From Tissierellia bacterium (GTDB taxonomy: Bacteria; Bacillota; Clostridia; Tissierellales; Sedimentibacteraceae): a stretch of DNA of 64,000 nt. Of this stretch, positions 3,275 to 27,557 are shown piece after piece. Location of the stretch: contig JAAYOE010000037.1 in NCBI GenBank assembly GCA_012520455.1, positions 6,027 to 70,026 of the forward strand, read 5' to 3'. A program made the position numbers and the translations under genes. The stretch's first letter is position 1; every line of letters begins with the position of its first letter. The notes under the pieces were generated by a model, which worked only from the letters and a program-made list of their open reading frames with translations, did no database searches and was not told where the DNA came from.

Positions 3275-3275
3275 G

Positions 3276-3509: not shown

Positions 3510-3510
3510 A

Positions 3511-4190: not shown

Positions 4191-4208
4191 TAATTCCGGA
4201 GACTGAGA

Positions 4209-5135: not shown

Positions 5136-5186
5136 TTGAAGAATCACCGGCTCAAGAGCCTCCATGCCCCTAAGGATAAGACTTTT

Positions 5187-5861: not shown

Positions 5862-5929
5862 TTTACAACCCTCCTGAATCATAATATGATTCAGAAACCT
5901 GAAGGTTCATAAGGGTGGTGATATGATTA

Positions 5930-5958
5930 TTGCAATGGAAGAAGCTTTCCTGTATAAT
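5930..5958 (+). promoter_or_regulatory. Sigma-A promoter for addBA
   Basis: TTGCAA-17-TATAAT. Confidence 0.65.
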
Positions 5959-6026
5959 TTAGTTAAATAAACAGGACAAGCCTTATTTTTTTGTCGGGAA
6001 GATTCCTTAGGACCAAGGGGGTTATC

Positions 6027-9000: not shown

Positions 9001-9440
9001 ATAAGGGAAAGGACCCGGAAGAAGAAATATTCAAGGAATTAAGACTCAAGGGCTATGTCTTAAAAGATAAGGAGCTAATAAAGTTTATGGATAAAAATAT
9101 AAGCTCCACATCAAGTGTCATACCTGCCGGGCTTAAAAAGGACGGGGAATTTTATGAAGCCAGGACCAAGGCCTTAAGTGAAGAAGCATTTAATGAATTG
9201 ATGGATATGGTTTATAAAAAATGCACAGAGATGACAAAGAGTATTTTGGAAGGGAATATAAACATTGAGCCATACAAAAAAACCGACGGCAAAACCCCCT
9301 GCACCTACTGCGAATATATTAGCATTTGCCAGTTTGACAGGTCCTTGGGAAACAGGTTCAGATTAATCGGAAAAGGGCCTCTATATTTTGAAGAGGGACA
9401 GGAACATTCAAGACCAGGGGAGGAAGGAGAGGCAAGATGA
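6027..9440 (+). CDS. addB: ATP-dependent helicase/nuclease subunit B
   Basis: GRANTGKS, VPELMTYQAE, nuclease GKIDRVD..IIDYKS, Fe-S cysteines YAECGF and PCTYCEYISIC; start at ATG 6027. Confidence 0.93.
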   Translation: MSLRIIAGRANTGKSSYIYDEIIRAAEETKDKLLLLVPELMTYQAESEIIQKYDLAGIIKVEVLSFKRLENKVLEEVGGLRLPDMSVFGKIMLLKQIFEENKDKLKIFGSSYRQTGFLKEFGELVAEFKQNLVDGPSLNTAGAKVEDELLKRKISDIELIYSEFVKRTQGKYFDEEDKTNLFISLIKESAYIRNSKIWIDGFESFNRQRLGVIKALCDFSKSVTLSLNIDSSYLDEPEDKDYYEAFKIIHDTYLRLKNLDEDIEIVALKQNKSSSPEIKAIEKNIFALNIEEYKDDTDNIAIYSSLNPYTETQRTAAKIISLVRDKGYRWRDIKVAVGSMDTYERNVKRVFAQYEIPCFLDVKRDILNNPLSKYILSILDIFIWKFKHDHVFEYLKTGFSPLSINQVHCLENYALRYGIEGEKWFKEFTTNEYDNYDIEEYRRLFAGDFEAARKEVHKLKTVNEITRLIFKFLDRHKIKEKMDKAVKGFNAIRKFEEASEYSQCWNYTMEIFEQLLLVGQDTEISIKEYRKILEAGLAEVEISIIPPAIDKVEVGEIDRIAVTKPKALFLLGANAANLDSKNTEKGLLLNEERDLLLKNDVKLTKGGDHETFKEKHMLYKLFSSPGHTLSVSYPLGLATGESLQPSLYLDILKRVFVRVKEGSDLSMGDELEFVSNCGGTYDYLVARMRDYIDGYETDNLWKDVYAWYEKNDRENFNIINKALQYKNSVKALEPDMVKTIYENNMTMTVSKLETYAECGFRYFLENVLRPKERPVQKIEFYDLGNIYHSVVEKFIDKVKEEYKDISLIDGARAEEEAAKITEDVLSDQADKVTALEANHRNKYMKEKIKRVMKRTCRTLVRQLNSSDFRPGYTELQIGPEDFKDEKAEKGLCLPPIEIGVETDKIKEVLKLRGKIDRVDVFENKGNIYVSIIDYKSSPKDLDLDDAKEGIQVQLFMYLKALIDRGEVLFGKKPHVGGLFYYYINDPLYKDDNKGKDPEEEIFKELRLKGYVLKDKELIKFMDKNISSTSSVIPAGLKKDGEFYEARTKALSEEAFNELMDMVYKKCTEMTKSILEGNINIEPYKKTDGKTPCTYCEYISICQFDRSLGNRFRLIGKGPLYFEEGQEHSRPGEEGEAR

Positions 9441-12400
9441 ACTGGACTGAAGAACAAAAGCAAATCATAGGTTTAAGGAATTCCAATATCTTGGTTTCAG
9501 CCGCGGCAGGCTCGGGGAAAACTGCCGTAATGGTGGAGAGGATAATTGAGCTTATAAAAAAGGGTGAAGACATAGATAAGTTTTTGGTTCTCACCTTCAC
9601 AAAGGCAGCAGCGGCTGGGATGAAGCAAAGGATACAAAAATCACTGATGAAGGCAGCTCAGGCCAAGGAAGGAAATGTAAATCATTTAAGAAGGCAATTA
9701 TCCCTCATAAACCGAGCAATGATCACTACGATTGACTCCTTCTGCATGGATCTTGTAAAGAAAAACTTCCATTTGGCCGATGTTGACCCGGATTTCAGGG
9801 TAGGGGACCAAAGCGAATTGACCATACTTTTGCAGGAAGCCATAGATGAAGCCTTAGAAGAAGAATATGAGAAAATCAATGATAATGATTCTTTCAGAAA
9901 ATTGGTTGAAGGGTTTACGGGGAACAGGGGGGATGAAGACCTCAGCCGGATTATTTTAACCCTTTACAGATTTATTTTAAGTTTTCCCGATCCTTTCCCC
10001 TGGCTCTGGGATAGTGTCGAGAAACTGAATATAAGGGGAGAAGAGCTTCAAAATTCAAACTGGCTTGATGAAATAAAAAGCTATTTTTTACTCTTGCTGG
10101 ATGGGGCCAAGGATTATATCCGAACAGCAATTGAAATATGTCTTGAACCTCACGGTCCCGGCCTTTATATGGAAACCCTGCAAAAGGATATGGACTTGGT
10201 TGACGGCCTCATAGGTCTTTTAGAGACCGATATGGGAGAATTCATGAGGGCCGTAAAGGAGTTTAAGGCACCAAAAGCCCCTCCTTTCAGAGAAAAGGAC
10301 CATCCGGAAGTGGATGTGGAAAAGCAAGTCGAAGTGGGGGGGTCAAAAAATAACAGGAGCCTAAGGATCAAATACAAGTCAATTATTGATTCAATCAAGA
10401 ATGATCTTCCTCATGACTTGGATTATGACAGGTATGCCCGGGAAATTAGAGAAATGTACGGCACCATGACCGCCTTGCGGGATTTAATAATCAAAACAGA
10501 TGAGTATTACAAGGAAAAAAAGAAGGAAAACTCCTTGGTTGATTTTAATGATTTGGAGCATTTGGCCTTAAAAATACTCAGAAATCCAGAAACTGCCTCA
10601 TACTACAGGAAGAAATACAAATACATATTCATAGACGAATACCAGGATTCCAACGGTCTGCAGGAAGCTATCATAAATCAAATCAAGAGAGAAGACAATT
10701 TGTTTATGGTGGGTGATGTCAAGCAGAGCATATACAGGTTCAGATTAGCAGACCCCGGCATATTTAATTCCAAGTATCGTGCCTTTAAGGAAGACATTGA
10801 AGCCCCCGGCGGAAAGAAAGCAAACAGGGCGATTGATTTGAACAAGAACTTCAGAAGCAGGGATGAAATATTAAAGGCTGTTAATTTCATATTCGGCAAG
10901 ATTATGACAAGGGAGTTGGGGGAAGTTGATTATGATGAAAAAGCTGCCTTGAATACGGGAAGCGATTTTCCGGGCTCTGTTCCGGTGGAATTGAATATCA
11001 TCCATAAAAATTCTCACCGGGAAGACCTTAATAGCAATAAGGATGAAGAGACAAGGGATGAAGATTTAAAAAGTGAGGCGGACCTGGAAATCGAATCCAT
11101 GGAGACGGCTGAACTTGAAGCCTTGTTTGCAGCACAGAGAATAAAGGACCTGGTGAAGGAAGAAATCTACACTTCCGGAAAAGGGGAGGCCAGGAAAACA
11201 GAATACAGGGATATTGTGATTTTGTTAAGGTCTGTTGCCGGCTGGGCAGGCATATTTGAAGATAGGTTTAACAGGGAAGGGATTCCATTTTATTACGACG
11301 GAGGCAAGGGATTCTATGAAACCTTAGAAGTAAAAATTATCCTGAATTTACTTAAACTCATCGACAACACCAGGCAGGATATACCCCTTTTAAGTGTTAT
11401 GAGATCTCCCTTAGGCAATTTTACAACGGAAGAATTATTGGAAATAAGGCTGAGTCATCCCGAAGAAAAATATTTCACACAAGCCCTGAATAAGTATATT
11501 CGCTCAGCCTGTGAAGGCGGGGAAGCTTCCGACTTGGCTCAAAGATTAAAAAGCTTCATGGATAAGATTTATGACTGGAATTACAGAAGCAGGTATATGC
11601 ACCTCAATGATTTAATATGGGATATATTGACGGAAACCAATTACTACAATTTTGCCGGAGCCCTCCCAAACGGGAAAGTAAGGCAGGCCAACCTGAGGAT
11701 GTTGGCCGATTTGGCCTCCGATTATGACAAGACATCAATGAGGGGTTTGTTTAAGTTCCTAAGGTACGTGGAAAAACTGGCCAAAGGCTCGGAAGACAGG
11801 GGACAAGCCAAAACCTTGGGGGAAAAGGACAATGTAGTGAGGCTGATGTCAATTCATAAGTCCAAGGGCTTGGAATTTCCCGTAGTTCTTATTTGCGGTC
11901 TCAACAAGCAGTTTAATCTTCAGGATACAAAAAATAAAATACTCCTTCACAAGGATTACGGAATTGCCCCTAAGTATGTCAATGTTGATGAAAGAACAGA
12001 AAGAGAAACATTGGCCCGAACTGCTATTAGGCTGAAAATTAAAAAAGAAAATATTTCTGAAGAGATGCGGGTTTTGTATGTTGCTATGACAAGACCCATA
12101 GACAGGTTAATTATGGCGGGGACAGTAAGCAAGTTAGAAAATAAGCACCCTAATTGGAGGAGGGGTTATTCCAAATATGCAGTCTACAAGGGCCTTTCAT
12201 ACATGGATTGGATTTGCGGCTGTCTGTTTGAAAGGACAAGCTTTGATAAATTCAATGAAATAATGAAAGAGGGCCGATGGAAAAACTGGAATTTGAATAT
12301 GATAAGGCCCTATGACTTAAGTTTAAACGCTAAGGAAGAAACAGACACAAAAATAAGCAAAATAGCAGGGATGAAGGATTTTAAAAAGAAAGAAAACAGC

Positions 12401-13144
12401 CCTCATTGCCGGGAGATAGACAGGCGGTTGAGCTTTAAATATCCTCATGGGGCTTCCGTGCACATACCTGCAAAGCTTTCCGTCACTGAGCTTAAGAATT
12501 TGGGAAGCAAGGAATTTACAAAATTGCGATATCATATTCCAACCTTGGTGGATGTTTTTAAATATGATGATAGGGACGAAAGATTTATTATAGATAAGGA
12601 CATCAAGGGGGCAGAAGTGGGAACCCTCCTCCACTTTGTAATGGAGCACCTGAATTTGAGGGGGGACTTGAAGAAACCATCCATAATAAAGACCATAAAT
12701 CAAATGAAAGAAAAGAAGCTCCTCACAGAAGCCGAGGCAGATATAGCCATTAACACCTATGCGGAAAAAATCGAAGATTTCTTCAAGAAGGACTTAGGCA
12801 GGAGAATTATCAATTCAAATTGTGTTTACAGGGAAGCTCCCTTTGTATTAAAAAAGCATGCCAAGGAAGTGATGGAGGCCCTTAGCGAAGAAGATTTGAT
12901 TCTCGTGCAGGGAATAATAGACTGCTATTTTATAGAGGACGGGGAAGCCGTAATCCTTGATTACAAAACTGACAGAATCGATGAAAGAGCTAATATATGC
13001 TCTCAAATCAACAAGCTTACGGAAGAATACCGGGACCAGGTGCTTTTGTACAGGGAAGCCGTGGAAAAACTCACCGGCTTAAGGGTTAAGGAAGCTTATT
13101 TATACTTTTTCTCAATAGGAAAAGAGGTTTTGGTGCCCTTTTAA
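9437..13144 (+). CDS. addA: ATP-dependent helicase/nuclease subunit A
   Basis: AAAGSGKT, LTFTKAAA, IDEYQD, VGDVKQSIYRFR, SIHKSKGLEF, LYVAMTR, nuclease QGIIDCYF..LDYKT; ATGA overlap with addB. Confidence 0.95.
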   Translation: MNWTEEQKQIIGLRNSNILVSAAAGSGKTAVMVERIIELIKKGEDIDKFLVLTFTKAAAAGMKQRIQKSLMKAAQAKEGNVNHLRRQLSLINRAMITTIDSFCMDLVKKNFHLADVDPDFRVGDQSELTILLQEAIDEALEEEYEKINDNDSFRKLVEGFTGNRGDEDLSRIILTLYRFILSFPDPFPWLWDSVEKLNIRGEELQNSNWLDEIKSYFLLLLDGAKDYIRTAIEICLEPHGPGLYMETLQKDMDLVDGLIGLLETDMGEFMRAVKEFKAPKAPPFREKDHPEVDVEKQVEVGGSKNNRSLRIKYKSIIDSIKNDLPHDLDYDRYAREIREMYGTMTALRDLIIKTDEYYKEKKKENSLVDFNDLEHLALKILRNPETASYYRKKYKYIFIDEYQDSNGLQEAIINQIKREDNLFMVGDVKQSIYRFRLADPGIFNSKYRAFKEDIEAPGGKKANRAIDLNKNFRSRDEILKAVNFIFGKIMTRELGEVDYDEKAALNTGSDFPGSVPVELNIIHKNSHREDLNSNKDEETRDEDLKSEADLEIESMETAELEALFAAQRIKDLVKEEIYTSGKGEARKTEYRDIVILLRSVAGWAGIFEDRFNREGIPFYYDGGKGFYETLEVKIILNLLKLIDNTRQDIPLLSVMRSPLGNFTTEELLEIRLSHPEEKYFTQALNKYIRSACEGGEASDLAQRLKSFMDKIYDWNYRSRYMHLNDLIWDILTETNYYNFAGALPNGKVRQANLRMLADLASDYDKTSMRGLFKFLRYVEKLAKGSEDRGQAKTLGEKDNVVRLMSIHKSKGLEFPVVLICGLNKQFNLQDTKNKILLHKDYGIAPKYVNVDERTERETLARTAIRLKIKKENISEEMRVLYVAMTRPIDRLIMAGTVSKLENKHPNWRRGYSKYAVYKGLSYMDWICGCLFERTSFDKFNEIMKEGRWKNWNLNMIRPYDLSLNAKEETDTKISKIAGMKDFKKKENSPHCREIDRRLSFKYPHGASVHIPAKLSVTELKNLGSKEFTKLRYHIPTLVDVFKYDDRDERFIIDKDIKGAEVGTLLHFVMEHLNLRGDLKKPSIIKTINQMKEKKLLTEAEADIAINTYAEKIEDFFKKDLGRRIINSNCVYREAPFVLKKHAKEVMEALSEEDLILVQGIIDCYFIEDGEAVILDYKTDRIDERANICSQINKLTEEYRDQVLLYREAVEKLTGLRVKEAYLYFFSIGKEVLVPF

Positions 13145-13169
13145 GACCTGGGGTGCCGAAGTTATTTAA

Positions 13170-13198
13170 TTGACGAATTACTGATTTTGTGCTAAACT
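13170..13198 (+). promoter_or_regulatory. Sigma-A promoter for deoC
   Basis: TTGACG-17-TAAACT. Confidence 0.6.
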
Positions 13199-13227
13199 TA
13201 TTCTATAAAAAAGTGATGGAGGCAGGT

Positions 13228-13878
13228 ATGGACCATTCGGAAATCTTGAAATATGTTGACCACACATTATTAAAACCCTATGCCACCTGGGAGGACATAG
13301 GTATCTTATGCGATGAAGCAATAAGGTATCAAACAGCATCCGTATGCATACCTCCCAATTACATAAAAAGAGTCCATGATACATATGGGGAAAGGGTAAA
13401 TATTTGTACTGTTGTGGGCTTTCCTTTAGGATATTCCACTTGCGGAGCAAAGCTAGAAGAATGCATATTAGCTTTAAAAGACGGTGCCAATGAAATTGAC
13501 ATGGTCATAAATATTACTGATGTTAAAAACAAAGATTATAAAAAAGTGGAAGATGAAATCCGCAAAATTAAAGAAACCATAGGAAATCATATATTAAAGG
13601 TCATAATTGAAACCTGTTATTTGACGACAGAAGAAAAAATCGAAATGTGTCATGCAGTGACAAATGCCGGTGCTGATTATATCAAGACTTCAACCGGTTT
13701 TGGGACCGGAGGGGCCACGATGGAGGATATTGACCTCTTCAAAAAACATTTAGGACCAAATGTGAAAATCAAAGCTTCCGGCGGAATTCGGACCATAGAG
13801 GATATGGAAGCTTTCATCGAAGCAGGCTGCTCAAGATTAGGAACCTCTTCGGCCGTAAAATTGATAAATAACGCTTAG
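13228..13878 (+). CDS. deoC: Deoxyribose-phosphate aldolase
   Basis: VDHTLLKP, VVGFPLG, EIDMVINI, YIKTSTGF, IKASGGIR; start at ATG 13228 after GGAGG. Confidence 0.95.
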   Translation: MDHSEILKYVDHTLLKPYATWEDIGILCDEAIRYQTASVCIPPNYIKRVHDTYGERVNICTVVGFPLGYSTCGAKLEECILALKDGANEIDMVINITDVKNKDYKKVEDEIRKIKETIGNHILKVIIETCYLTTEEKIEMCHAVTNAGADYIKTSTGFGTGGATMEDIDLFKKHLGPNVKIKASGGIRTIEDMEAFIEAGCSRLGTSSAVKLINNA

Positions 13879-13923
13879 CGTTTATTTATATAATATTATT
13901 AAAAAAATGGAGGAATTAATATC

Positions 13924-15099
13924 ATGAAACTATGGAGAAGGTTGGCTGTTGTTGTACTTGTTTTCCTGATGATTTTTGCTTTTTCGGCATGTGCAAAAAA
14001 TGAACCGGCACCACAGGAAGAACCGGAAACACCTGAAACGCCGGAAGAGCCTGAAACACCGGAAGAGCCTGCAGCTAATGTTTTTGAGTTAGCCTTGATC
14101 ACTGACGTTGGAACAATTGACGACAAATCATTTAACCAAGGCGCTTGGGAAGGCGTAGAAGCTTACGCTAAGGAAAATAACATTACATATAAATACTATC
14201 AGCCGGCTGAGCAATCGGACACTGCTTATCTTGACTCGATCGCTTTAGCGGTAAAAGCCGGAGCAAAGGTTATTGTATGCCCCGGATTCTTGTTTGAAGT
14301 GCCGATTCATACAGCACAAACAATGTATCCGGATGTAAAGTTTGTGATTCTTGACGGGGCACCCCATGCAGGTGACTACAATATTGAAATTGCCGACAAC
14401 ACCTATTCCATATTCTATGCTGAAGAAGAAGCAGGTTTCTTAGCAGGCTACAGCATAGTGAAAGAAGGTTATACCAAGTTAGGGTTTATGGGCGGTATGG
14501 CTGTTCCGGCAGTTGTTCGTTTCGGATACGGATTTGTTCAGGGTGCTGAATATGCAGCCCATGAAATTGGGTTGACAGATCCTGTACAGGTCAAATACAC
14601 CTATGTAGGAAACTTTAATGCTACTCCTGAAAACCAGGCAAAGGCTTCTTCATGGTACAATGAAGGTACCGAAGTTATATTTGCATGCGGCGGTGCCGTA
14701 GGTAACTCGGTTATGAAGGCAGCAGAAGCAGCAGGAACGAAGGTAATCGGTGTTGACGTTGACCAATCGGCAGAATCTGAGACAGTAATAACTTCATCAA
14801 TGAAGAACCTTTCAAAATCCGTGTATGATGCTTTAGCAGCATATTATGCAGGAAACTTCCCGGGAGGAACTTCGGTTTCATTGGATGCTACAGTTGAAGG
14901 TGTTCAATTACCTATGGAAAATTCAAGGTTCGAAAACTTCACACAAGCTGACTATGATGCAATCTACGCTAAAATAGTTGCAAAAGAAATAGAAATAATG
15001 AATGATTCAGATGTTGTTGAAGATGCAGGAAAACCCGCAGAAGAAGTAACAGCTGCAGATATTCCGGTAAGCAAGGTTGAGGTAGAAGTTATTAATTAG
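13924..15099 (+). CDS. BMP-family (nucleoside) ABC transporter substrate-binding lipoprotein
   Basis: Lipobox FSAC; DDKSFNQGAWEG, EVIFACGG, IGVDVDQS. Confidence 0.9.
   Translation: MKLWRRLAVVVLVFLMIFAFSACAKNEPAPQEEPETPETPEEPETPEEPAANVFELALITDVGTIDDKSFNQGAWEGVEAYAKENNITYKYYQPAEQSDTAYLDSIALAVKAGAKVIVCPGFLFEVPIHTAQTMYPDVKFVILDGAPHAGDYNIEIADNTYSIFYAEEEAGFLAGYSIVKEGYTKLGFMGGMAVPAVVRFGYGFVQGAEYAAHEIGLTDPVQVKYTYVGNFNATPENQAKASSWYNEGTEVIFACGGAVGNSVMKAAEAAGTKVIGVDVDQSAESETVITSSMKNLSKSVYDALAAYYAGNFPGGTSVSLDATVEGVQLPMENSRFENFTQADYDAIYAKIVAKEIEIMNDSDVVEDAGKPAEEVTAADIPVSKVEVEVIN
14011..14070 (+). repeat. In-frame Pro/Glu/Thr linker repeat (PQEEPETPETPEEPETPEEP)
   Basis: Short imperfect GAAACACC/GAAGAGCCT units after the lipobox. 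Confidence 0.8.
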
Positions 15100-18871: not shown

Positions 18872-20437
18872 ATGTTTGCCGATAATAAAATTTGGATTGG
18901 TAAAAGTGACAAAAGGGTATATTTAGAGCCTAAGATGGCTAACAGGCACGGCCTGGTGGCAGGAGCCACAGGCACGGGAAAAACAATTACCTTAAAAGTA
19001 TTGTCCGAGTCTTTCAGCGATATGGGCGTTCCTGTTTTTATCGCCGATATCAAGGGAGACCTGGCAAGTATAGCTATTGCCGGTACTGATAATGAAAACA
19101 TGAGGGAAAGAATAGGACGTTTCGGAATAGAAAATTTTTCTTACAAGGGATTCCCCGTCCAGTTTTGGGATGTCTACGGGGAAGGCGGTATACCGGTAAG
19201 GACAACCGTTACTGAAATGGGACCCTTGATGCTTTCAAGAATATTAGATTTAAATGAAACCCAGGCAGGTGTCTTGAGCATTGTATTCAGGGTGGCGGAC
19301 GAAAAAGGGCTCTTGCTTTTGGACTTGAAGGATTTGCGGGCAATGGTTCGCTATGTGGGTGATAATGCCGGTGATTTCAGGATGAAATACGGCAACATAT
19401 CATCTCAAAGCATAGGTGCTATTCTAAGGAGCCTGCTGACCTTAGAAGACCAAGGGGGTGACTTTTTCTTCGGAGAGCCTGAACTTGATATCATGGACTG
19501 GATAAAAACAAGTTCTGACGGAAGAGGAATAATAAATGTTCTCCACTGTGCAAAATTATTCTTAAATCCCTTGTTATATTCTACATTTTTGTTATGGATG
19601 CTTTCGGAATTATATGAAAACCTTCCTGAAGAAGGAGATTTGGACAAGCCTAAAATGGTATTCTTCTTTGACGAAGCCCACCTTCTTTTCGAAGATGCTC
19701 CCAAACAGCTCCTTGATAAAATTGAATTGGTGGTTCGTTTAATTCGGTCCAAGGGAGTAGGGGTTTATTTCGTAACACAAAATCCGGCGGATGTGCCTAA
19801 TGATATTTTGGGCCAGTTAGGAAACAGGATTCAGCATGCCTTGAGGGCATATACACCTGCTGAAAGGAAAAAGGTGGTTACGGCAGCGGAAACCTTCCGC
19901 GAAAATCCTGAATTTGATACAGTGGAAGCAATAACCCAGCTTGGAACAGGTGAGGCTCTGATTTCATGCCTTGATGAAAAAGGCATACCCTCCGTGGTTG
20001 AACGGGCATTCATTCTTCCACCTCAGAGCCAGTTTGGAACAATAGACGATATGCTGAGAAATCAAATAATTGTAACCACTCCTGCCTATAAGAAATATTA
20101 CAAGGCCATTGACAGGGAATCAGCTTATGAGATGCTTACGGAAAGGGCTGAAAGAAAACGGGAGGAAGACCTCCTTGAACTTCAGAGATTAGAAGAAGAA
20201 AAACGCCTCAAGATGGAAGCCAAGGAAGAAGAAAAGAGGCTTAAGGAAGAGGAAAAAAGGCTTAAAGCGGAAGAAAGAGAGAGGGAAAGACAGCGAAAAG
20301 AGTTGGAAAAAACCATGAAAAAGTCAACCAACCGTTTGACCTCCGTGGAAAGGGTAACTAATTCGGCTATGAGTGCAATAGGGAGAGAAGTGGGACGGTC
20401 GCTTATAAGAGGAATCTTAGGCACCTTAAAGAAATAA
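18872..20437 (+). CDS. DUF853/YjgR-family HerA-like ATPase
   Basis: [15 protein letters not shown] Walker A, FFFDEAH Walker [18 protein letters not shown]; charged coiled-coil tail. Confidence 0.88.
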
Positions 20438-20452
20438 CTAAGTTCAGATACC

Positions 20453-20797
20453 ATGTATAATAAAAACAAAGGCTTTAAATATGAAAAAATCGCTGAAGAA
20501 TACTTGCTCGCCAAGGGATATAAAATATTGGAGGTAAACTTTGCAAGCAGGTTTGGAGAAATAGATATTATTGGCCAAAAAGACGGCAGGCTCCACTTCG
20601 TTGAGGTAAAGGGGCGGAAAAATACAGAGCACGGCTATCCCAGGGAAGCAGTGACTCCTGCCAAACAAAAAAAGCTGAGGAGTGCGGCCAAATACTATTT
20701 CATGCTCAAAGAAAAGGACGATTACCCCTGCCAGTTTGACGTCATTGAAATTATTTTGGATAGCAGGGAACTAAACCACATAGAAAATGCCTTTTAA
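20453..20797 (+). CDS. yraN: YraN-family protein (restriction-endonuclease-like fold)
   Basis: G..E..A..YL..KGY.IL..N...GEIDII...FVEVKGR. Confidence 0.9.
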   Translation: MYNKNKGFKYEKIAEEYLLAKGYKILEVNFASRFGEIDIIGQKDGRLHFVEVKGRKNTEHGYPREAVTPAKQKKLRSAAKYYFMLKEKDDYPCQFDVIEIILDSRELNHIENAF

Positions 20798-20826
20798 CAA
20801 GTTCAGACTTCTCTGAACTTGTTTTT
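20796..20826 (+). terminator. Intrinsic terminator
   Basis: AACAAGTTCAGA-CTTC-TCTGAACTTGTT plus T-tract. Confidence 0.8.
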
Positions 20827-20870
20827 ATGACAAGGGGATGACAAGGGGACGGGGGTAGTGTCATCTTTTT
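20827..20870 (+). repeat. REP-like repeat: partial copy (20827-20837) plus full 27-bp copy (20838-20864) with CTTTTT tail
   Basis: ATGACAAGGGG-ATGACAAGGGGACGGGGGTAGTGTCAT-CTTTTT, identical to copies at 23401 and 25950. Confidence 0.9.
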
Positions 20871-20886
20871 TCTCTTATTTTACAGG

Positions 20887-20915
20887 TTGACCTAATTATT
20901 TATCTGTGTTATTAT
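20887..20915 (+). promoter_or_regulatory. Sigma-A promoter for mtaB
   Basis: TTGACC-17-TATTAT with extended -10 TG. Confidence 0.6.
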
Positions 20916-20945
20916 CATCCAAGAAATTTACCTCAAGGAGCAACA

Positions 20946-22259
20946 ATGAATAAGGATACAAAAAAAGAATATACTGTTTCTTTCATCACCTTGGGCTGCA
21001 AGGTAAACCAGTACGAAACAGAAGCTATGACTGAAGTTTTGGAGGCTGAAGGATTTAAAGTTCTTCCTCCCGATGAAATCAGCGACATATATATCATCAA
21101 CACTTGTGCAGTCACCAAGGAAAGCGAAAGAAAATCCAGGCAGTTTATAAACAAGGCAAAAAGAATAAATCCTGATGCTTTAGTGGTTGCGGTAGGCTGC
21201 AGCGTCCAGTTGAATTCCGAAAAAATCAATAAAGAAACAGCAGCAGACATAATTATCGGGACAAAGCATAAAGGTAATATAGGAAGAATCATTAAAGATA
21301 AGCTTAATAACACTGAACAAACTTATGCTATCGAAGAATTTAAAAGCAGGGAAAGCTTCGAAGAGTTAAAGATAAGTACCCTTCATGATAAGACCCGGGC
21401 TAATATAAAGATTCAGGACGGCTGCAGTCAGTTTTGCTCCTACTGCATCATTCCTTATGTCAGAGGACCCGTAAGAAGCAGGAATCATGAAGATATCATA
21501 AAGGAAGTAACAAGAATAGCAAAAAGCGGCTATAAAGAAGTCGTACTGAACGGAATACACATATCCTCTTATGGAAAGGACCTTAAAGAAAAGTATTATC
21601 TCATTGATTTGATAGAAGATATAAATAAAATAGAAGGAATTGAAAGAATCAGGCTTGGGTCCATAGAGCCCAACCTGATAAATGAAGATTTCATGAAAAG
21701 ATATGCAGACTTGGACAAGACCTGCGACCATTTTCATCTATCCCTCCAAAGCGGCAGCGATAGTGTTTTAAAGAGGATGAACAGAAGATATACCGGGGAT
21801 GAATATAAAAACAAGGTGGATTTAATAAGAAAATTCATGCCTGGTGCGGGAATCACAACAGATATAATTGTGGGTTTTCCCGGAGAAAGCGACGAGGAAT
21901 TCAATGAGACCCTGGAATTTGTGAGACAAATAAAATTCTCCCGAATACATGTTTTCAAGTATTCTGTTCGGGAAGGCACCAAGGCTGCGGAAATAGAACC
22001 CAAAATAATAGATTCGGTAAAATCGGAAAGAAGCAAAATCCTTATTGATTTAGGCGAAAGAATCTCCCGTGAATTCATGAAGAAATTTATCGGCAGGAAC
22101 CTGTCGGTATTGATAGAAACCGAAAAAAATAATGACCGGTATGAGGGTTATACAACAAATTACTTGAAAGTTTTGTTAAAAAGTGATATAAATGTTAAAA
22201 ACGAAATAATTAACGTTCATATAAAGGGAATCAGGAACGATTATTTATTGGCTGAATAA
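20946..22259 (+). CDS. mtaB: tRNA t6A37 methylthiotransferase
   Basis: TLGCKVNQYETE, INTCAVT, radical-SAM GCSQFCSYC, TDIIVGFPGE, C-terminal TRAM. Confidence 0.92.
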   Translation: MNKDTKKEYTVSFITLGCKVNQYETEAMTEVLEAEGFKVLPPDEISDIYIINTCAVTKESERKSRQFINKAKRINPDALVVAVGCSVQLNSEKINKETAADIIIGTKHKGNIGRIIKDKLNNTEQTYAIEEFKSRESFEELKISTLHDKTRANIKIQDGCSQFCSYCIIPYVRGPVRSRNHEDIIKEVTRIAKSGYKEVVLNGIHISSYGKDLKEKYYLIDLIEDINKIEGIERIRLGSIEPNLINEDFMKRYADLDKTCDHFHLSLQSGSDSVLKRMNRRYTGDEYKNKVDLIRKFMPGAGITTDIIVGFPGESDEEFNETLEFVRQIKFSRIHVFKYSVREGTKAAEIEPKIIDSVKSERSKILIDLGERISREFMKKFIGRNLSVLIETEKNNDRYEGYTTNYLKVLLKSDINVKNEIINVHIKGIRNDYLLAE

Positions 22260-22280
22260 ATTGTGAAGTGAGGTGAAATA

Positions 22281-22622
22281 ATGGATTGTATTTTTTGCAA
22301 GATTGCAAACAAAGAAATTCCGTCTCAGTTGGTATTTGAAAATGAATACGTAGCAGCTTTCAGAGATTTGGCTCCCCAAGCTCCTGTGCATATATTAGTC
22401 GTGCCAAAGGTTCACATAGGTTCAATGAATGAAATCACTGAGGAAAACAGCCATTTGGTTGCAGAAATCTTTAAAGCAATCAATAAAATCGCCGAGTCAG
22501 AAGGTATTAAGGATACCGGCTACAGGGTGATCAGCAACTGCGGCAAAGACGCTTGTCAATCGGTGCAACATTTGCATTTTCATGTTTTAGGCGGAAAGAA
22601 ATTATCAGAATCATTAGCATAA
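22281..22622 (+). CDS. Histidine triad (HIT) nucleotide-binding protein
   Basis: DCIFCKI, HLHFHVLGG. Confidence 0.95.
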   Translation: MDCIFCKIANKEIPSQLVFENEYVAAFRDLAPQAPVHILVVPKVHIGSMNEITEENSHLVAEIFKAINKIAESEGIKDTGYRVISNCGKDACQSVQHLHFHVLGGKKLSESLA

Positions 22623-22627
22623 ATTAC

Positions 22628-22656
22628 TTGCATTTACTTATTCTATGTTATATAAT
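22628..22656 (+). promoter_or_regulatory. Sigma-A promoter for rpsU-yqeY
   Basis: TTGCAT-17-TATAAT. Confidence 0.7.
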
Positions 22657-22732
22657 AATAAATGCTATTTCAAACTCGCTGGTGTCTTAGGACAACTGGT
22701 AATTGAGGACGAGGGGAGGGTAGCAAGCAATA

Positions 22733-22918
22733 ATGACAGAGGTAAGAGTAAGAGAAAACGAGTCCATAGATAATGCTCTTAGAAGATTTAAAAGACAATG
22801 CGCACTTACCGGCGTGATGTCTGAAGTAAGAAAAAGAGAACATTATGAAAAGCCAAGCGTTAAGCGTAAAAAAAAGGCTGAAGCGGCTCGCAGGAAGAAG
22901 AATAAGAAAGCAAGATAA
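22733..22918 (+). CDS. rpsU: 30S ribosomal protein S21
   Basis: [36 protein letters not shown]. Confidence 0.97.
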
Positions 22919-22929
22919 GAGGTGAAAGC

Positions 22930-23373
22930 ATGCCTTTAAAAGAGAAACTCATGGAAGATTTAAAAGAATCCATGAAGTCTAAGAACAAAGTCAGAAAAGA
23001 TACCATTACAATGGTCAGAGCTGCAATTAAACAAAAAGAAGTTGACGAAAGAATCGAATTAACAGATGCTGAAATAGTAGATATAATAGCCAAGCAGGTT
23101 AAAAATAAAAAAGATTCGATATCTGACTTTCAAAAAGGCAATCGACAGGATCTTGTAGATCTAACCAACCAAGAAATCAAAATACTTTTAGAATATTTAC
23201 CGCCTCAACTGTCAGATGAAGACCTTGATGCAATTGTGAAAGAAGCAATCGAAGCAACAGGGGCCCAGTCCAAAAAAGATATGGGCAAGCTCATGGCCTT
23301 CATAATGCCCAAGGTAAAGGGCAAGGCTGACGGTAAACATGTAAATGAAATTGTGGCTAAATATATAAAGTAG
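22930..23373 (+). CDS. yqeY: GatB/YqeY domain protein
   Basis: LKEKLMEDLKESMK, YLPPQLS, MGKLM..KGKADG; follows rpsU. Confidence 0.93.
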   Translation: MPLKEKLMEDLKESMKSKNKVRKDTITMVRAAIKQKEVDERIELTDAEIVDIIAKQVKNKKDSISDFQKGNRQDLVDLTNQEIKILLEYLPPQLSDEDLDAIVKEAIEATGAQSKKDMGKLMAFIMPKVKGKADGKHVNEIVAKYIK

Positions 23374-23374
23374 T

Positions 23375-23399
23375 AAAAGAACCCCATGGGTTCTTTTTT
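23375..23399 (+). terminator. Intrinsic terminator of rpsU-yqeY
   Basis: AAAAGAACCC-CAT-GGGTTCTTTTTT. Confidence 0.8.
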
Positions 23400-23400
23400 A

Positions 23401-23462
23401 ATGACAAGGGGACGGGGGTAGTGTCATCTTTTTTTATCACGGGAAGACGTGGGCACTGTCAT
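23401..23462 (+). repeat. REP-like repeat tandem: perfect copy 23401-23427 and degenerate copy 23436-23462
   Basis: ATGACAAGGGGACGGGGGTAGTGTCAT then CTTTTTTT then ATCACGGGAAGACGTGGGCACTGTCAT (19/27). Confidence 0.85.
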
Positions 23463-23583
23463 AATTTATTATAAGTAAGCAAAGAATCACAAGCATATAG
23501 ATGATTATTTAGAATGTTTTCAACGGACTTTTTTGGGTAGATATATATTGATTAAGATAGAGAATATATGAAAGAGGGATTTT

Positions 23584-24360
23584 ATGAACCAAGTAAAAGA
23601 TATGCCGGTACTCTTCGTGGGACACGGCTCACCCATGAATGCCATAGAAGATAACAAGTTTGTCCGCGAATGGGAAGCTTTAGCGGATAAGATACCCAAA
23701 CCAAGAGCAATACTATCAATTTCAGCCCACTGGTTTACGAAGGGTACAAAAATTATGGATGAAGAATCACCTGAAACCATATACGATATGTATGGATTTC
23801 CGGATGACCTTTACAAAATAGTCTATGCTGCCAAAGGCTCTCCCGGCCTTGCTCATAAAACTGCTGAAATGATAAACCGTCCCGTTGAAATTGATAATTC
23901 ATGGGGTTATGACCACGGCACGTGGTCGGTACTCTGCAGAATATATCCAAAGGCTGACATTCCTCTTGTTCAACTCAGCATAGACCGCGATGCTTCAATG
24001 GAGGACCATTATAATATCGGCAAGGAGCTGATTAAACTTCGGGAAGAAGGTGTCCTGATCTTTGGAAGCGGGAATGTTACCCACAATTTAAGAAGACTTG
24101 ACTGGCACAATAAGGGGGGATATGATTGGGCTGAAGATTTTGACAAATACATCATTGAAAATGTAATAAAGGGAAACTTTGATAACGTTATTGACTATAG
24201 AAGGGCAGGACAGTCAGCGGATTACGCTGTACCGATTGCTGATCATTTTGCACCCCTCTTATATGTTTTAGGTGCCTTGAAAGGCGGAGAAAAGACGAGG
24301 GTCTTTAATGATGAGTGCATATTGGGTTCACTTTCCATGACAAGCTTTTTATTTGAATAA
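23584..24360 (+). CDS. 4,5-DOPA extradiol dioxygenase-like (YgiD/LigB family)
   Basis: LFVGHGSPMNA, SAHW, GYDHGTW, GSGNVTHNL, DHFAPL. Confidence 0.9.
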   Translation: MNQVKDMPVLFVGHGSPMNAIEDNKFVREWEALADKIPKPRAILSISAHWFTKGTKIMDEESPETIYDMYGFPDDLYKIVYAAKGSPGLAHKTAEMINRPVEIDNSWGYDHGTWSVLCRIYPKADIPLVQLSIDRDASMEDHYNIGKELIKLREEGVLIFGSGNVTHNLRRLDWHNKGGYDWAEDFDKYIIENVIKGNFDNVIDYRRAGQSADYAVPIADHFAPLLYVLGALKGGEKTRVFNDECILGSLSMTSFLFE

Positions 24361-24366
24361 AATGCA

Positions 24367-24393
24367 AAAAAAGAACTCAAGGGGTTCTTTTTT
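24367..24393 (+). terminator. Intrinsic terminator
   Basis: AAAAAAGAACTC-AAG-GGGTTCTTTTTT. Confidence 0.75.
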
Positions 24394-24400
24394 GATGCCT

Positions 24401-24460
24401 AAAAGATGACACTAAGCCCCGTCCCCTTGTCATATAACAAGGGGAGGAGGGTAGTGACAT
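24401..24460. repeat. Inverted pair of REP-like repeats (REPIN-like): minus copy 24406-24433 and plus copy 24434-24460
   Basis: ATGACACTAAGCCCCGTCCCCTTGTCAT abutting ATAACAAGGGGAGGAGGGTAGTGACAT (23/27). Confidence 0.85.
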
Positions 24461-24489
24461 TACTAAAGAATAATCGACAAAAACCTTGA

Positions 24490-24518
24490 TTGACAGGCTT
24501 TTTGCCCTATGGTATAAA
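24490..24518 (+). promoter_or_regulatory. Sigma-A promoter for the RAYT gene
   Basis: TTGACA-17-TATAAA with extended -10 TG. Confidence 0.75.
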
Positions 24519-24539
24519 TTACCAAAGGGGTGAGTATTC

Positions 24540-25304
24540 ATGCCAAGAACTTCGAGACTTAAAAGTGAAAGCGGAATATACCATATAATAATGAGGGGTA
24601 TTAACAGACAAAGGATATTTTTTGATGATGAAGATTGCAACAGGTTTATTCACACTTTAATGGAATATAAAGATGTGTGCGGTTTTAAAATCTATACCTA
24701 TTGCTTGATGGAAAATCATATGCATTTATTGTTGCACGAATGCAAGGAATTGTTGGGAACTATCATGAGAAGGATATGCAGCTCTTATGTTTTTTGGTAT
24801 AACAAAAAATATGACAGGATTGGATATTTGTTTCAAGATCGTTTTAAAAGCGAGCCTGTGGAGGATGATACATATTTTTTGACAGTATTGCGATACATAC
24901 TTCAAAATCCGGTAAAAGCAGGACTTGTCGATAAGATTGAAGATTATGAGTGGACAAACTATAATGATTATATTGGAATAAACAGGATGACGGATACTCA
25001 TTTTGTTTTGCAATTTTTTGATGAAATCGATAAGGTAAATGCATTGAAGCTATTTATTGAATATGTGAATAAAGAAAATGGCGATGAATGTATGGATGTA
25101 AACGAAAGAAGGCAGCCGGCTGACCATGAAGCAATAAGAATAATTAAAAACTGCTGTAAGATTAATGATGAGAAGGACTTGCTTAAACTTGGAAAGGATG
25201 TAAGGAACACATATTTAAGAGAATTGATAAAAAAACATAATTTGTCAATAAGACAAATTGAAAGATTGACAGGTATAGGGAGAGGGGTAATCCAGAAACT
25301 GTAG
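24540..25304 (+). mobile_element. REP-associated tyrosine transposase (RAYT; HUH/Y1, IS200/IS605 superfamily) with C-terminal HTH
   Basis: MPRTSR, YHIIMRGINRQRIF, HUH motif YCLMENHMHLLL, LFQDRFKS, LRYILQNPVKAGLV (catalytic Tyr), tail LSIRQIERLTGIGRGVI; intact 254-aa ORF. Confidence 0.88.
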
Positions 25305-25331
25305 ATGACATTACCCCCGTCCCCTTGTCAT
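25305..25331 (-). repeat. REP-like repeat starting at the base after the RAYT stop codon
   Basis: Reverse complement ATGACAAGGGGACGGGGGTAATGTCAT (26/27). Confidence 0.9.
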
Positions 25332-25349
25332 CTAAGTGAGGAGGAAATT

Positions 25350-25883
25350 ATGATAAAGGATATTGAAAAAATTGAAAAGGCAAGATTAATTATACAAAAG
25401 ATTGCAGACGGAACAAATCCGATTAACGGCCAGCCCGTAGAAGCTGACAGTTTTCTCCATGATTCAAGGATTATCAGGTGTTTTTATTTTATTTCAGAGG
25501 TATTGGAGGCCGTTGTTAAGGGTACATACAGCAATAAAAAGATTAATGATTTTGTAATTACCGATGAGCAAAAAAACAAGGTAGTTTTTACCGAGGGAAA
25601 TATAGGAGTTAATGAAGCTGCCAGGTGCATTAATCTGCAACTGAATCCCTTAATGAGCAAAAAAGTAACGGGAGCCCTATTGAATAAAGGATTAAAAAGA
25701 TTAGGCATACTTTCGGAAGCAGTAGAAGATGGGAAGAAAAGAACCGTCACAAATGAAATTTCAAAAGACTACGGTTTCTTCTCAGAGAAGAGAAGTTATG
25801 ACGGCAGAGAATATGATATGGTATTAATTAATAATGAAGGCAAAAAATATATTTTAGATAATATTGAAAAGATTATGGAATAA
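25350..25883 (+). CDS. Hypothetical protein (177 aa); C-terminal half resembles KilA-C/ANT-like DNA-binding domains
   Basis: RBS GAGGAGG, ATG 25350 (ORF-track ATG 25305 lies inside the repeat); LNKGLKRLGIL..RTVT..G..VLINNEGKKYI pattern judged by eye. Confidence 0.75.
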   Translation: MIKDIEKIEKARLIIQKIADGTNPINGQPVEADSFLHDSRIIRCFYFISEVLEAVVKGTYSNKKINDFVITDEQKNKVVFTEGNIGVNEAARCINLQLNPLMSKKVTGALLNKGLKRLGILSEAVEDGKKRTVTNEISKDYGFFSEKRSYDGREYDMVLINNEGKKYILDNIEKIME

Positions 25884-25890
25884 GGTGGGT

Positions 25891-25976
25891 ACCTCTTTCC
25901 TTGTCACGTAAAAAGATGACGCAACCCCCGTCCCCTTGTCATGAAAAAGATGACACTACCCCCGTCCCCTTGTCAT
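25891..25976 (-). repeat. Tandem REP-like repeats: perfect 25950-25976, variant 25916-25942, degenerate partial near 25891-25907
   Basis: Minus strand reads ATGACAAGGGGACGGGGGTAGTGTCAT-CTTTTTC-ATGACAAGGGGACGGGGGTTGCGTCAT-CTTTTTAC-GTGACAAGGAAAG; period 34-35 bp. Confidence 0.9.
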
Positions 25977-25977
25977 C

Positions 25978-26003
25978 AAAAGAGCCCTGAAAGGGGTCTT
26001 TTT
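25978..26003 (+). terminator. Intrinsic terminator at right end of island
   Basis: AAAAGAGCCC-TGAAA-GGGGTCTTTT. Confidence 0.65.
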
Positions 26004-26006
26004 ATT

Positions 26007-26036
26007 TTCATAGGAGGGTTGGTAACCGCATAATTT
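26007..26036 (+). promoter_or_regulatory. SigE-type promoter for yqfC-yqfD
   Basis: TCATA-16-CATAATTT, same spacing as the B. subtilis spoIID-type SigE consensus; yqfCD is SigE-controlled in B. subtilis. Confidence 0.65.
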
Positions 26037-26070
26037 GTAGTAAGACAAATAAATGACCGGGGAGGGGAAT

Positions 26071-26352
26071 ATGAGCAAGTTTAACGATTTTAGGAGCAAA
26101 TTGGCGGATGAACTTGAAATACCCAATGATGCTTTGTCGGATAATTTTGAGCTGAGTATGCACGGCAACAAAAAAGTGATAATAGAAAACCATTTAGGTT
26201 TAAGGGTTTATGAAGACAACCGGGTGACAGTAAAAACCAAAGACCAGGATATAACAATAAAAGGCTCCAAATTCAAGATAAAGGAAATAAATCAATATAA
26301 AGTTATAGTGAAGGGGAAAATTAAAGAAATAGTATTTAGTATGAAGGAGTAG
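26071..26352 (+). CDS. yqfC: YabP/YqfC-family sporulation protein
   Basis: LADELEIP, VIIENHLGL..Y, I.G..IKEI; precedes yqfD. Confidence 0.85.
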   Translation: MSKFNDFRSKLADELEIPNDALSDNFELSMHGNKKVIIENHLGLRVYEDNRVTVKTKDQDITIKGSKFKIKEINQYKVIVKGKIKEIVFSMKE

Positions 26353-26354
26353 AT

Positions 26355-27557
26355 ATGTTAATATTCAAGCTCATGCATTTAATAAGAGGATATGTGGTCA
26401 TCCGGTCGGATGCCATAAACTCGGAAAAAATCTTGAATATACTCCGAAGAAAAAACATCACGGTATGGGATGTGCAAAAGAAGGACAAAGGAACAAGGTT
26501 TAAAATTTCCTATGATGACTATATAAAAAACTATGATTTGCTCAAGGAAATCATAAAACCGGCGGCAAAGAGGGGAGCCTTAATAAAGCTAAAGAAGCTT
26601 AAATTAAGGAAGGGTTTTTCAATAGGAATCTTGATATTGATAATATCTCTTTATTTGCTTACTTCCTTGATATGGGAGGTGGAGGTTGTAGGAACCAATC
26701 AAAAAAACATAAATAATATTTTGGCCTTTTTGGAAGAGAATAAATTAAAAGTACCCTTTGCCATTTCAAAAACACAGGCAAAAAAATTAGAAACCATGAT
26801 TTATAATCACTTCGACTATAGATTTGTGGATGTTATCCAGGAAGGGTCAAAGTTAATCATAATAGTCAAGGAAAGAGAAGCTGAGCCGGCTGAAATAAAA
26901 AGCAATGAGCCATCCAGCATCATTGCTTCAAAAAATGCGATAGTAAGCAAGGTAATTGCCAAGAGCGGCCAGCCTGTCGTAAGGGAGGGAGACGTTGTAT
27001 ATGAAGGCCAAACCTTAATAATGGGCCTGGTCCGGAAGAAGAATTCCGATGAATTCATGATGGTCCCCTCTGACGGAATTGTTTACGGCAAGACTTATTA
27101 TAATTTTGAAATGAAGGAAGCTAAAGTCAGGAGCCTTAGCCTAGCCACAAATAAAAGCAAGTCTGTTTATTACTTGAAAATAAAAGGGAATAGTATTAAA
27201 ATAGTAGGTGACAAAGAACCCTATGAAAACTATAATTATAGGGAGAAGGTCATAAAAGTGCCTATTCTTTCAAATATAACCGATATCAGCCTCTTGAAGG
27301 GAACCTGGTATGAAGAAGTTTTAAAGGATATAGAAATTGATAAGAATACTGCCGAAAACAAAATGAAAATAAGCATGTATGATGAACTCTTAAAAAGATG
27401 CGATGATGACAGCAGGATTCTAAAATCAACAATTAACTTTTCGGAGGATGAGGAATTTTATTATTTGACAGCCCAGATAGAGGTAATTGAAGATATAGGA
27501 GAAAGGGTAAGAATTTATCCCCTAACCGAAGAGACAGAAGAAAAAATGGAGGAATAA
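26355..27557 (+). CDS. yqfD: Stage IV sporulation protein YqfD
   Basis: GYVVIR, EKILNIL, single TM, IIASKNAIV..SGQPVV.EGDVV..GQ.LI; position between yqfC and phoH. Confidence 0.82.
   Translation: MLIFKLMHLIRGYVVIRSDAINSEKILNILRRKNITVWDVQKKDKGTRFKISYDDYIKNYDLLKEIIKPAAKRGALIKLKKLKLRKGFSIGILILIISLYLLTSLIWEVEVVGTNQKNINNILAFLEENKLKVPFAISKTQAKKLETMIYNHFDYRFVDVIQEGSKLIIIVKEREAEPAEIKSNEPSSIIASKNAIVSKVIAKSGQPVVREGDVVYEGQTLIMGLVRKKNSDEFMMVPSDGIVYGKTYYNFEMKEAKVRSLSLATNKSKSVYYLKIKGNSIKIVGDKEPYENYNYREKVIKVPILSNITDISLLKGTWYEEVLKDIEIDKNTAENKMKISMYDELLKRCDDDSRILKSTINFSEDEEFYYLTAQIEVIEDIGERVRIYPLTEETEEKMEE

Follow-up and report, generated by a model that had tools for sequence, protein, structure and literature searches.

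Positions 23401–25976 of a 64,000-nt stretch of DNA from a Tissierellia bacterium (GenBank assembly GCA_012520455.1, contig JAAYOE010000037.1; the whole stretch is termed the window) form an island that carries a RAYT gene (REP-associated tyrosine transposase, REP being repetitive extragenic palindrome) and is bracketed by copies of a 27-nt repeat. The locus is probably a REPtron/TIRtron (TIR, terminal inverted repeat), i.e., a single-copy, vertically inherited gene of the RAYT/TIRYT type accompanied by inverted copies of its cognate repeat, at a site where gene content changes by deletion between repeats and by hotspot exchange. The host is an uncultured Tissierellia/Sedimentibacter-like Firmicute of anaerobic digesters. 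The spread of a conserved repeat core over many Firmicute lineages, the linked gene orf177 and the rich series of states of the interval appear to be undescribed. An earlier reading of the window, the original prediction, had proposed a Firmicute REP/RAYT system that captures or shuffles genes between repeats, loosely in the manner of an integron.

The 27-nt repeat, ATGACAAGGGGACGGGGGTAGTGTCAT, is present in 8–9 copies within the island. The bracketed genes encode a 4,5-DOPA-dioxygenase, the RAYT-like HUH/Y1 protein and orf177. Positions 23401–23433 and 25944–25976 represent the two arms of a perfect 33-bp inverted repeat, as had been predicted, and the predicted layout and gene calls also stand: the repeats are found at their places and the gene families are confirmed by profile matches. 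The 64-kb window contains five matches to the repeat with ≤3 mismatches, compared to an expectation of 0.00 from 100 shuffles. A further perfect copy is at 20838–20864; beyond the island it is the single extra copy in the window. The features are as follows, where R+ and R- are repeat copies on the plus and minus strands:

20827–20837: partial half-site preceding the outside repeat copy
20838–20864, plus strand: perfect repeat copy outside the island, between yraN and mtaB, directly after the T-run of the yraN terminator
22930–23373: yqeY, preceded by rpsU
23375–23399, plus strand: T1, terminator hairpin of yqeY, with related copies inside the island (T') and at its right end (T2)
23401–23433, plus strand: left arm of the 33-bp inverted repeat, containing a perfect R+ at 23401–23427
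23436–23462, plus strand: R+', a degenerate repeat (19/27)
23584–24360, plus strand: LigB-family 4,5-DOPA extradiol dioxygenase (NCBIfam NF007914, 281 bits)
24367–24391, plus strand: T', terminator after the dioxygenase, a diverged copy of the yqeY terminator region
24406–24433, minus strand: R- of a doublet, with a 1-nt insertion
24434–24460, plus strand: R+ of the doublet (23/27), ortholog of the single R+ in locus L003
24490–24518, plus strand: promoter-like site of the RAYT gene, TTGACA at 24490–24495, a 17-nt spacer and TGgTATAAA at 24510–24518
24540–25304, plus strand: gene for the RAYT/TIRYT-type HUH Y1 protein (254 aa)
25305–25331, minus strand: R- (26/27), whose first base follows the RAYT stop codon
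25350–25883, plus strand: orf177, no family match
about 25885–25907, minus strand: partial R-, of which the half-site CCTTGTCAC alone remains
25916–25942, minus strand: R- (25/27)
25950–25976, minus strand: perfect R-, within the right arm (25944–25976) of the 33-bp inverted repeat
25977–26002, plus strand: T2, terminator hairpin, abutting ATTTTCATAG, the conserved left edge of the yqfC upstream region
right of the island: yqfC/YabP, yqfD, phoH and ybeY

Positions 24406–24460 thus hold an abutting inverted doublet. The 41-nt segment 24357–24397, around T', is 78% identical to 23363–23403 in the yqeY terminator region, and the shared terminator motif has three matches only in the 64 kb, namely T1, T' and T2. 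The original prediction saw no target-site duplication. No short one is visible at the island, but two related copies of the yqeY terminator flank it. A conserved upstream region, ATGTTTTCAA..TTTTGGGTA, comes with the dioxygenase. The RAYT promoter was read directly from the sequence and is kept in L003, L126 and L115 (L numbers designate loci or stretches from other genomes); a consensus promoter scan passed over it, since its -10 hexamer ends in A. The R- at 25305–25331 is within the 45-nt spacer between the RAYT gene and orf177. Its position is the same in L003, L126, L007, L131 and L134, and a diverged variant is found there in L123. The order R+, promoter, RAYT, R- recurs in the window, L003, L007, L019, L025, L027, L126 and L137. 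An Rfam scan of positions 20000–27000 gave nothing relevant, with one sub-threshold snoRNA match.

The protein supports the predicted Firmicute REP/RAYT system, in that it retains the HUH motif and the catalytic tyrosine and has TnpAREP as its best fold match. It matches Pfam Y1_Tnp (1.4e-13), and H60-x-H62 and Y119-x3-N123-P124 are invariant in an alignment of 40 homologs. The top fold matches of an AlphaFold2 model (pLDDT 85) are all Y1 transposases. The closest PDB structure is 4ER8, E. coli TnpAREP with a REP hairpin (E 1.8e-6, TM 0.75 on the target, 156 columns), and the ISDra2, IS608 and IS200 TnpA proteins rank behind it. By sequence the similarity to TnpAREP is marginal (E 0.46), with an alignment that takes in HUH and Y..NPVK.G.V. 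Residues ~140–254 represent a helical, well-conserved extension of ~110 residues with an end resembling a helix-turn-helix (HTH); S236, R238, Q239, T244, G245 and R248 are invariant, and there are weak matches to HTH_19/HTH_3 at residues 226–254 (E 0.01–0.02). The Bac_DnaA_C, HTH_23 and HTH_28 profiles, which are those named in PMC6006769, did not match the protein. The family has >4,300 matches, mostly of ~253 aa and 57–65% identity, with sources that include Sedimentibacter, Geosporobacter, Natronincolaceae, Mobilitalea and Thermacetogeniaceae. No close relatives were found on plasmids, where the best identity is 36%, or in phages.

The exact RAYT protein is found in 280 blocks of the sequence collection, with one context in 24 of the 24 contigs read. 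Orthologs with 84, 76, 67 and 64% identity share the site next to yqeY, the last of these being from Sedimentibacter. The ratio of nonsynonymous to synonymous substitution (dN/dS) is 0.125–0.17 for the RAYT gene and 0.08–0.10 for orf177, and dS for both is similar to that of the flanking housekeeping genes in comparisons with L137, L003 and L126. The low dN/dS together with a dS like that of the neighbours argues for vertical inheritance of the pair under purifying selection.

These data bear on whether the 2.6-kb block might be a recently inserted, autonomous composite transposon of the IS200/IS605 type (IS, insertion sequence), with the dioxygenase and orf177 as passengers. The perfect 33-bp terminal inverted repeats, the Y1 domain and the lack of a short target duplication are what one would look for, and the RAYT–orf177 pair is present at a different site in Natronincolaceae. 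IS200/IS605 elements are recognized by many near-identical copies, presence on plasmids or phages, and distinct left and right subterminal hairpins. In the present case the window has one copy, every contig read gives the same context, the inverted ends are identical and there is no close plasmid or phage relative. The RAYT gene and orf177 also diverge in step with the flanking genes, the same site is occupied in the 64%-identical Sedimentibacter ortholog, the fold is closest to the domesticated TnpAREP, and the repeat is dispersed without the gene. A transposon of this kind is highly improbable, and the original prediction was right to set the gene apart from an ordinary multicopy IS.

The gene orf177 gives no match in PHROGs, NCBIfam or Pfam. 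Its AlphaFold2 model (pLDDT 89) has a best PDB match that is not significant (E 0.14), with weak winged-helix hints, and the family is small (31 matches). In the Tissierellia-like clade it is directly downstream of the RAYT gene with one repeat in the spacer, and the two are neighbours in L003, L137 and L126. The Natronincolaceae pair at another genomic site is in L123 (orf177 at 8001–8537). A homolog with 53% identity is found in L129 (8001–8573) without a RAYT gene, amid ParE and HepT/MNT toxin-antitoxin genes.

The repeat is not limited to this host. An exact scan with TGWCAAGGGGACGGGGKT, in one genome per species and with counts per genome that are lower bounds, matched >112 stretches across diverse Firmicute genomes. 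The core is present in Sedimentibacter, Geosporobacter, Syntrophomonas, Pelotomaculum, Desulfotomaculum, Sporomusa and other Negativicutes, and also in Syntrophaceticus, Herbinix, Acetivibrio, Oscillospiraceae, Dethiobacter and others. More than one repeat locus is present in several of the genomes. A RAYT homolog is near the repeat in only ~16 of the >112 stretches, for each of which ≤8 kb was fetched. A full-text search for the core in the literature library used returned no relevant paper. In four digester metagenomes, with 119–264 contigs placed per run, bins that contain the repeat have 10–34x the baseline depth, and this excess tracks host abundance over a 25-fold range. A rough estimate from contig depth is on the order of tens of repeat copies in the host genome.

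The consensus of 141 copies is G-TGWCAAGGGGACGGGGKT-GTTGWCAC, and the conserved portion is the loop AAGGGGACGGGGKT. The two W positions covary, with 90 complementary and 37 non-complementary pairs among the 141 copies, which supports a stem of 5–6 bp around a conserved 15-nt G-rich loop. An inverted copy follows within 60 nt in 37 of the 141, giving REPIN-like doublets, and 95 are singles. The doublet of the window (24398–24466) folds as single-stranded DNA with -16.2 kcal/mol. A CGTC-tagged REP class was considered since CCCCGTCCCC contains CGTC, and was rejected: that family has 8–9 bp stems, 4–5 nt loops and no associated transposase (PMC3733652).

About one third of the full copies (L011–L122; 141–171 copies) are preceded, 0–4 nt upstream, by a partial 5' half, TGWCAAGGG and up to GACGG, as at 20827–20837. 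This half-site could be a binding site for the HTH domain or a product of slippage. The partial copies were also considered as a fixed mark of RAYT cleavage, and this was rejected, as the truncation points vary (prefix 9–14 nt, gap 0–4) and do not define a single site.

In Natronincolaceae L123 the RAYT gene is flanked by a diverged repeat (6900–7060 and 7934–7965), e.g., (T)GCGTCAAGGGGACGCTTTGTTTGCC, which suggests co-evolution of repeat and enzyme. Degraded RAYT remnants that are still flanked by repeats are found in L049 (6844–7241, Geosporobacter ferrireducens), L100, L105 and L115 (3760–3880), and G. ferrireducens has at least two full-length RAYT paralogs (P0045, P0059). The remnants and paralogs imply that copy number and decay differ between lineages.

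The island is transcribed. A single RNA contig spans 23576/23617 to 25839–25973 in four biogas metatranscriptomes, so that the dioxygenase–RAYT–orf177 stretch is expressed in situ. On the right, the RNA stops at the repeat cluster and T2. With contig depth as a crude measure of expression, the island resembles hit and phoH: depths are 60–240 for the island and phoH, 700–14,000 for rpsU–yqeY and near zero for yqfC–yqfD (26071–27557). The near-zero values of the sporulation genes yqfC and yqfD rule out DNA carry-over. The original prediction took the intact reading frame and strong promoter to suggest an active or domesticated RAYT gene, and the near-consensus promoter and this in situ RNA are in accord with it. 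In four DNA metagenomes the island contig (23405–25973) is 1–17% shallower than the flanks, e.g., 373 compared to 405 and 412. A small subpopulation or related strains that lack the island could account for this, or it may come simply from flanks shared with relatives.

Relatives of the locus were retrieved via the RAYT protein, orf177 and yqfD. The flanks mtaB–hit–rpsU–yqeY and yqfC–yqfD–phoH are syntenic in every locus that reaches far enough, with identities of 90–95% for phoH and 97–100% for rpsU. The repeat at the equivalent yraN/mtaB intergenic site is also present in L136 and L138. In five related species yqeY and yqfC are directly adjacent, and the block does interrupt conserved synteny, as had been predicted. 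Between these flanks the interval has at least 10 states in a shallow clade:

L139, L142, L144 and L151: empty, single terminator
L132: empty, two terminators and the T' flank GATGCCTTAAAA
L138: 15-nt half-repeat only
L143: dioxygenase only, with an 8-nt repeat remnant
L003 and L137: RAYT and orf177
window: dioxygenase, RAYT and orf177
L131 and L134: RAYT without orf177
L126–L128: RAYT, orf177 and VTC–DUF4956–CotH–response regulator–kinase; L028 shows the kinase–repeat–yqfC end only
L136: 2Fe-2S protein and Fe-hydrogenase-like gene
L115: the 2Fe-2S and Fe-hydrogenase-like pair, dioxygenase and RAYT remnant
L130: hydrogenase-like gene (cut by the contig end) and a 680-aa gene, no repeats
L135: ParE/Phd, then a 187-aa gene and UPF0047, then response regulator–histidine kinase–ABC–FtsX, separated by repeats, no RAYT
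L007 (Sedimentibacter): island of >12 kb, with repeats around the RAYT gene only

In a neighbour-joining tree of yqfC+yqfD+phoH, the scarless empty loci L144, L151 and L142 are outside, and the remaining states are interleaved in a single clade supported at 100%. Outgroups have an empty yqeY|yqfC site, and the repeat-carrying clade is hypervariable there. The dioxygenase module is present in L143 and L115 and absent from L003 and L137, and the sister taxa L136 and L003 have wholly different content. The variation of cargo among relatives, including empty sites, is that anticipated by the original prediction, and most, although not all, of the variable modules have a repeat or a duplicated terminator-repeat junction at their boundaries.

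Such a pattern might be produced by an ordinary hotspot of horizontal transfer, where homologous recombination in the flanking genes exchanges alleles, and the repeats and RAYT gene are passengers that build up in permissive intergenic DNA without a part in gain or loss. The highly conserved, syntenic flanks found in all relatives would suit this explanation, as would the sister taxa with different content and the L130 cargo that lacks repeats. The within-species pair L137 and L138, with 99.95% identity in the left flank and 98.4% in the right, also hints at recombination. However, the deletion endpoints in L138, L132 and L143 are in repeats or terminator-repeat duplicates, repeats are found at module boundaries much more frequently than one would expect from random placement between genes, and the outgroups without repeats are all empty at this site. 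As a full account of the locus, exchange with passive repeats is improbable.

The junctions can be compared directly. L003 has one R+, which abuts the yqeY terminator on one side and the RAYT promoter region on the other. R+', the dioxygenase, T' and R- separate these two junctions in the window, and the difference amounts to the module plus one repeat. The dioxygenase is between two R+ copies in the window and in L115, the 5.6-kb VTC block of L126 (VTC–CotH–response regulator–kinase) is between two R- at a place where the window and L003 have tandem R-, and L135 also has modules in direct-repeat brackets. L137 has a 1580-bp segment, R+ RAYT orf177 R-, between two perfect 51-bp direct repeats (1961–2011 and 3592–3642), and L138 has the 51-mer once (9543–9593). 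The 51-mer is composed of the 3' end of yqeY (11 nt, with the stop codon), the yqeY terminator and the initial 15 nt of a repeat. In L132 the right flank of T', GATGCCTAAAAG, is left as a scar. Three losses are reconstructable (L138, L132 and L143), and all are deletions at repeats or at duplicated terminator-repeat junctions.

Modules have also been gained. The next-closest dioxygenase homologs (78% and 75%) are at unrelated loci and share the upstream motif ATGTTTTCAA..TTTTGGGTA with the window and L115, which shows that the dioxygenase came here along with its regulatory region. The gene was considered as a repeat-bounded mobile cassette elsewhere, and this was rejected since the loci of these homologs have no repeats. 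Several other unrelated modules have also been gained at the yqeY|yqfC site. None of the island versions has an integrase or other recombinase; the RAYT gene is the sole recombinase-like gene. Two further duplications involve the repeat. L134 (~60–230) has a tandem repetition of a unit made up of the terminal 17 nt of the RAYT gene and the repeat. In L007 the segment 7874–8016, consisting of a repeat, the RAYT promoter and the first 16 nt of the RAYT gene, is copied at 9577–9719 (143 nt, 99%), 1.7 kb downstream, where it precedes a 69-aa open reading frame.

The original prediction would explain these gains by the enzyme. On this proposal the RAYT catalyses repeat-by-repeat single-strand recombination, integrating and excising modules beside its own gene, and the site is an integron-like HUH platform. 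Modules in direct-repeat brackets are the product expected of Campbell-type integration at a repeat, and the L137, L134 and L007 duplications suggest joining at repeats. Within a shallow clade this one site has received several unrelated modules, three outgroup lineages without repeats are empty, the dioxygenase arrived from elsewhere with its native upstream region, no other recombinase is at hand, and the RAYT gene is expressed. The proposal is nevertheless unlikely. No excision junction was detected among the metagenome contigs placed on the locus, and no integration junction was seen. Contig joints were examined as excision products and rejected: Logan contigs break at the repeat, and the sides of the joints are only 25–30 nt, which indicates that they represent other repeat loci. 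The modules have promoters and terminators of their own and differ in orientation, the L130 cargo has no repeats and many L007 genes are not bracketed by them. Module order is consistent (hydrogenase | dioxygenase | RAYT–orf177 | VTC block), as would be expected if a larger ancestral island had undergone differential loss. The three reconstructable events are all deletions, and the yraN|mtaB repeat is kept in three lineages with no cargo. The predicted HUH-driven capture or shuffling is not upheld by these events and joints. A narrower form, that the RAYT, possibly with orf177, drives HUH capture and leaves duplicated terminator-repeat junctions such as the 51-bp repeat of L137 as integration footprints, is likewise given little credence.

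The comparison with integrons does not hold beyond the outcome, which is a fixed site beside a recombinase-like gene with variable genes between recurring repeats. There is no IntI tyrosine recombinase, no attI/Pc and no sign of cassette circles here. Each module is an ordinary operon with its own signals, and the ParE/Phd pair of L135 is on the opposite strand. An RNA start near 23576 and the dioxygenase's own upstream region and terminator are unlike promoterless attC cassettes, and HUH chemistry on single-stranded DNA would apply.

The nearest known system is the E. coli REPtron (tnpAREP/yafM with REP/BIMEs), which is a single, vertically inherited locus with a variable number of 3' repeats (Ton-Hoang et al. 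2012, PMC3333891). In some E. coli strains the tnpAREP locus is precisely excised and in others it is replaced by the hicAB toxin-antitoxin genes (PMC3333891). The present locus shares with it an HUH Y1 gene at a fixed site, inverted dispersed repeats, vertical inheritance, variable 3' repeats, loss or replacement in some lineages, and the fold. It differs in the protein, which has 254 aa with the helical/HTH C-terminal extension, and in the repeat, which has a 6-bp stem, a conserved 15-nt G-rich loop and no GTAG foot. There are tens of copies and not hundreds, the repeat core spans many Firmicute lineages and is not species-specific, and there are far more interval states within a shallow clade.

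TIRtrons, described by Di Nocera et al. (2013), have TIRs with a GGGGWSAS motif (PMC3733652). Their TIRYTs were equated by Quentin et al. (2018) with TnpA_Y1 subclass 2.1, which has a C-terminal HTH, and REP-like sequences were not found near subclass 2.1 genes (PMC6006769). The likeness to the present locus consists of a longer RAYT homolog with a C-terminal HTH-like domain, G-rich TIR flanks and moderately abundant repeats as singles, dimers and clusters; it is drawn from published descriptions and the motif. The motif is matched at 7/8 positions by GGGGACGG in the window and in full by the upstream variant GGGGACAC of Natronincolaceae L123. In contrast to subclass 2.1 as reported, the repeat beside the present gene is plainly a dispersed one and also occurs as REPIN-like doublets. 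By text search, the main texts of PMC3733652 and PMC6006769 name no Firmicute example. Bertels et al. (2017) state that Group 1 RAYTs are "also found in the Clostridia", with few occurrences (~12) of the flanking 16-mers (PMC5581495). The REPIN-RAYT systems of Pseudomonas and Neisseria (Bertels and Rainey 2011, PMC3116915; PMC5581495) have in common with this locus a single-copy vertical RAYT gene, repeat flanks and inverted doublets that form long hairpins. Here the repeats are mostly singles and moderate in copy number, an upstream half-site is present in about a third, and there is a C-terminal HTH and a linked orf177.

From what is known of E. coli TnpAREP and IS200/IS605 TnpA, the RAYT of the REPtron/TIRtron proposed here would bind the repeat as a short hairpin on single-stranded DNA, and it would cut and rejoin repeat DNA through Tyr119, spreading and maintaining the repeat family. 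Clustered direct repeats would then be substrates for deletion by host recombination or replication slippage, and new modules would come by ordinary horizontal exchange, aided by the highly conserved flanking genes. The RAYT would be the cause of the repeats and not a demonstrated catalyst of gene capture. As at the E. coli REPtron locus, deletion between repeats together with ordinary hotspot exchange suffices for the data.

Several points weigh against a REPtron/TIRtron. A lone repeat as single-stranded DNA forms only a weak hairpin, with a 6–9 bp stem, a 15-nt loop and -2.5 to -5.7 kcal/mol. Neither the GTAG foot of classical REPs nor a CGTC foot is found in the repeat. The protein scores 76.8 bits with NCBIfam REP_Tyr_transpos, slightly below the cut-off of 80, and the repeat copy number of the host is an indirect estimate. 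Ordinary deletion would not create the 51-bp duplication of L137 or the triplication of T1, T' and T2. Several independent gains at one site, where the RAYT gene is the sole recombinase-like gene, leave room for an active role of the enzyme.

REP/RAYT biology has so far been worked out almost wholly in Proteobacteria. Here the long, HTH-bearing type (subclass 2.1/TIRYT), which was reported without REP-like partners, has a clear dispersed cognate repeat, and a single intergenic site has many turnovers of gene content in a shallow clade. The loci represent a natural series of empty site, scar, RAYT alone, and RAYT with one to three modules. With this series one may ask whether domesticated HUH nucleases and their repeats merely litter genomes or are agents of local gene flux. 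A flux driven by the enzyme would represent a new route of gene capture; otherwise, the locus would be a well-documented Firmicute counterpart of the E. coli REPtron.

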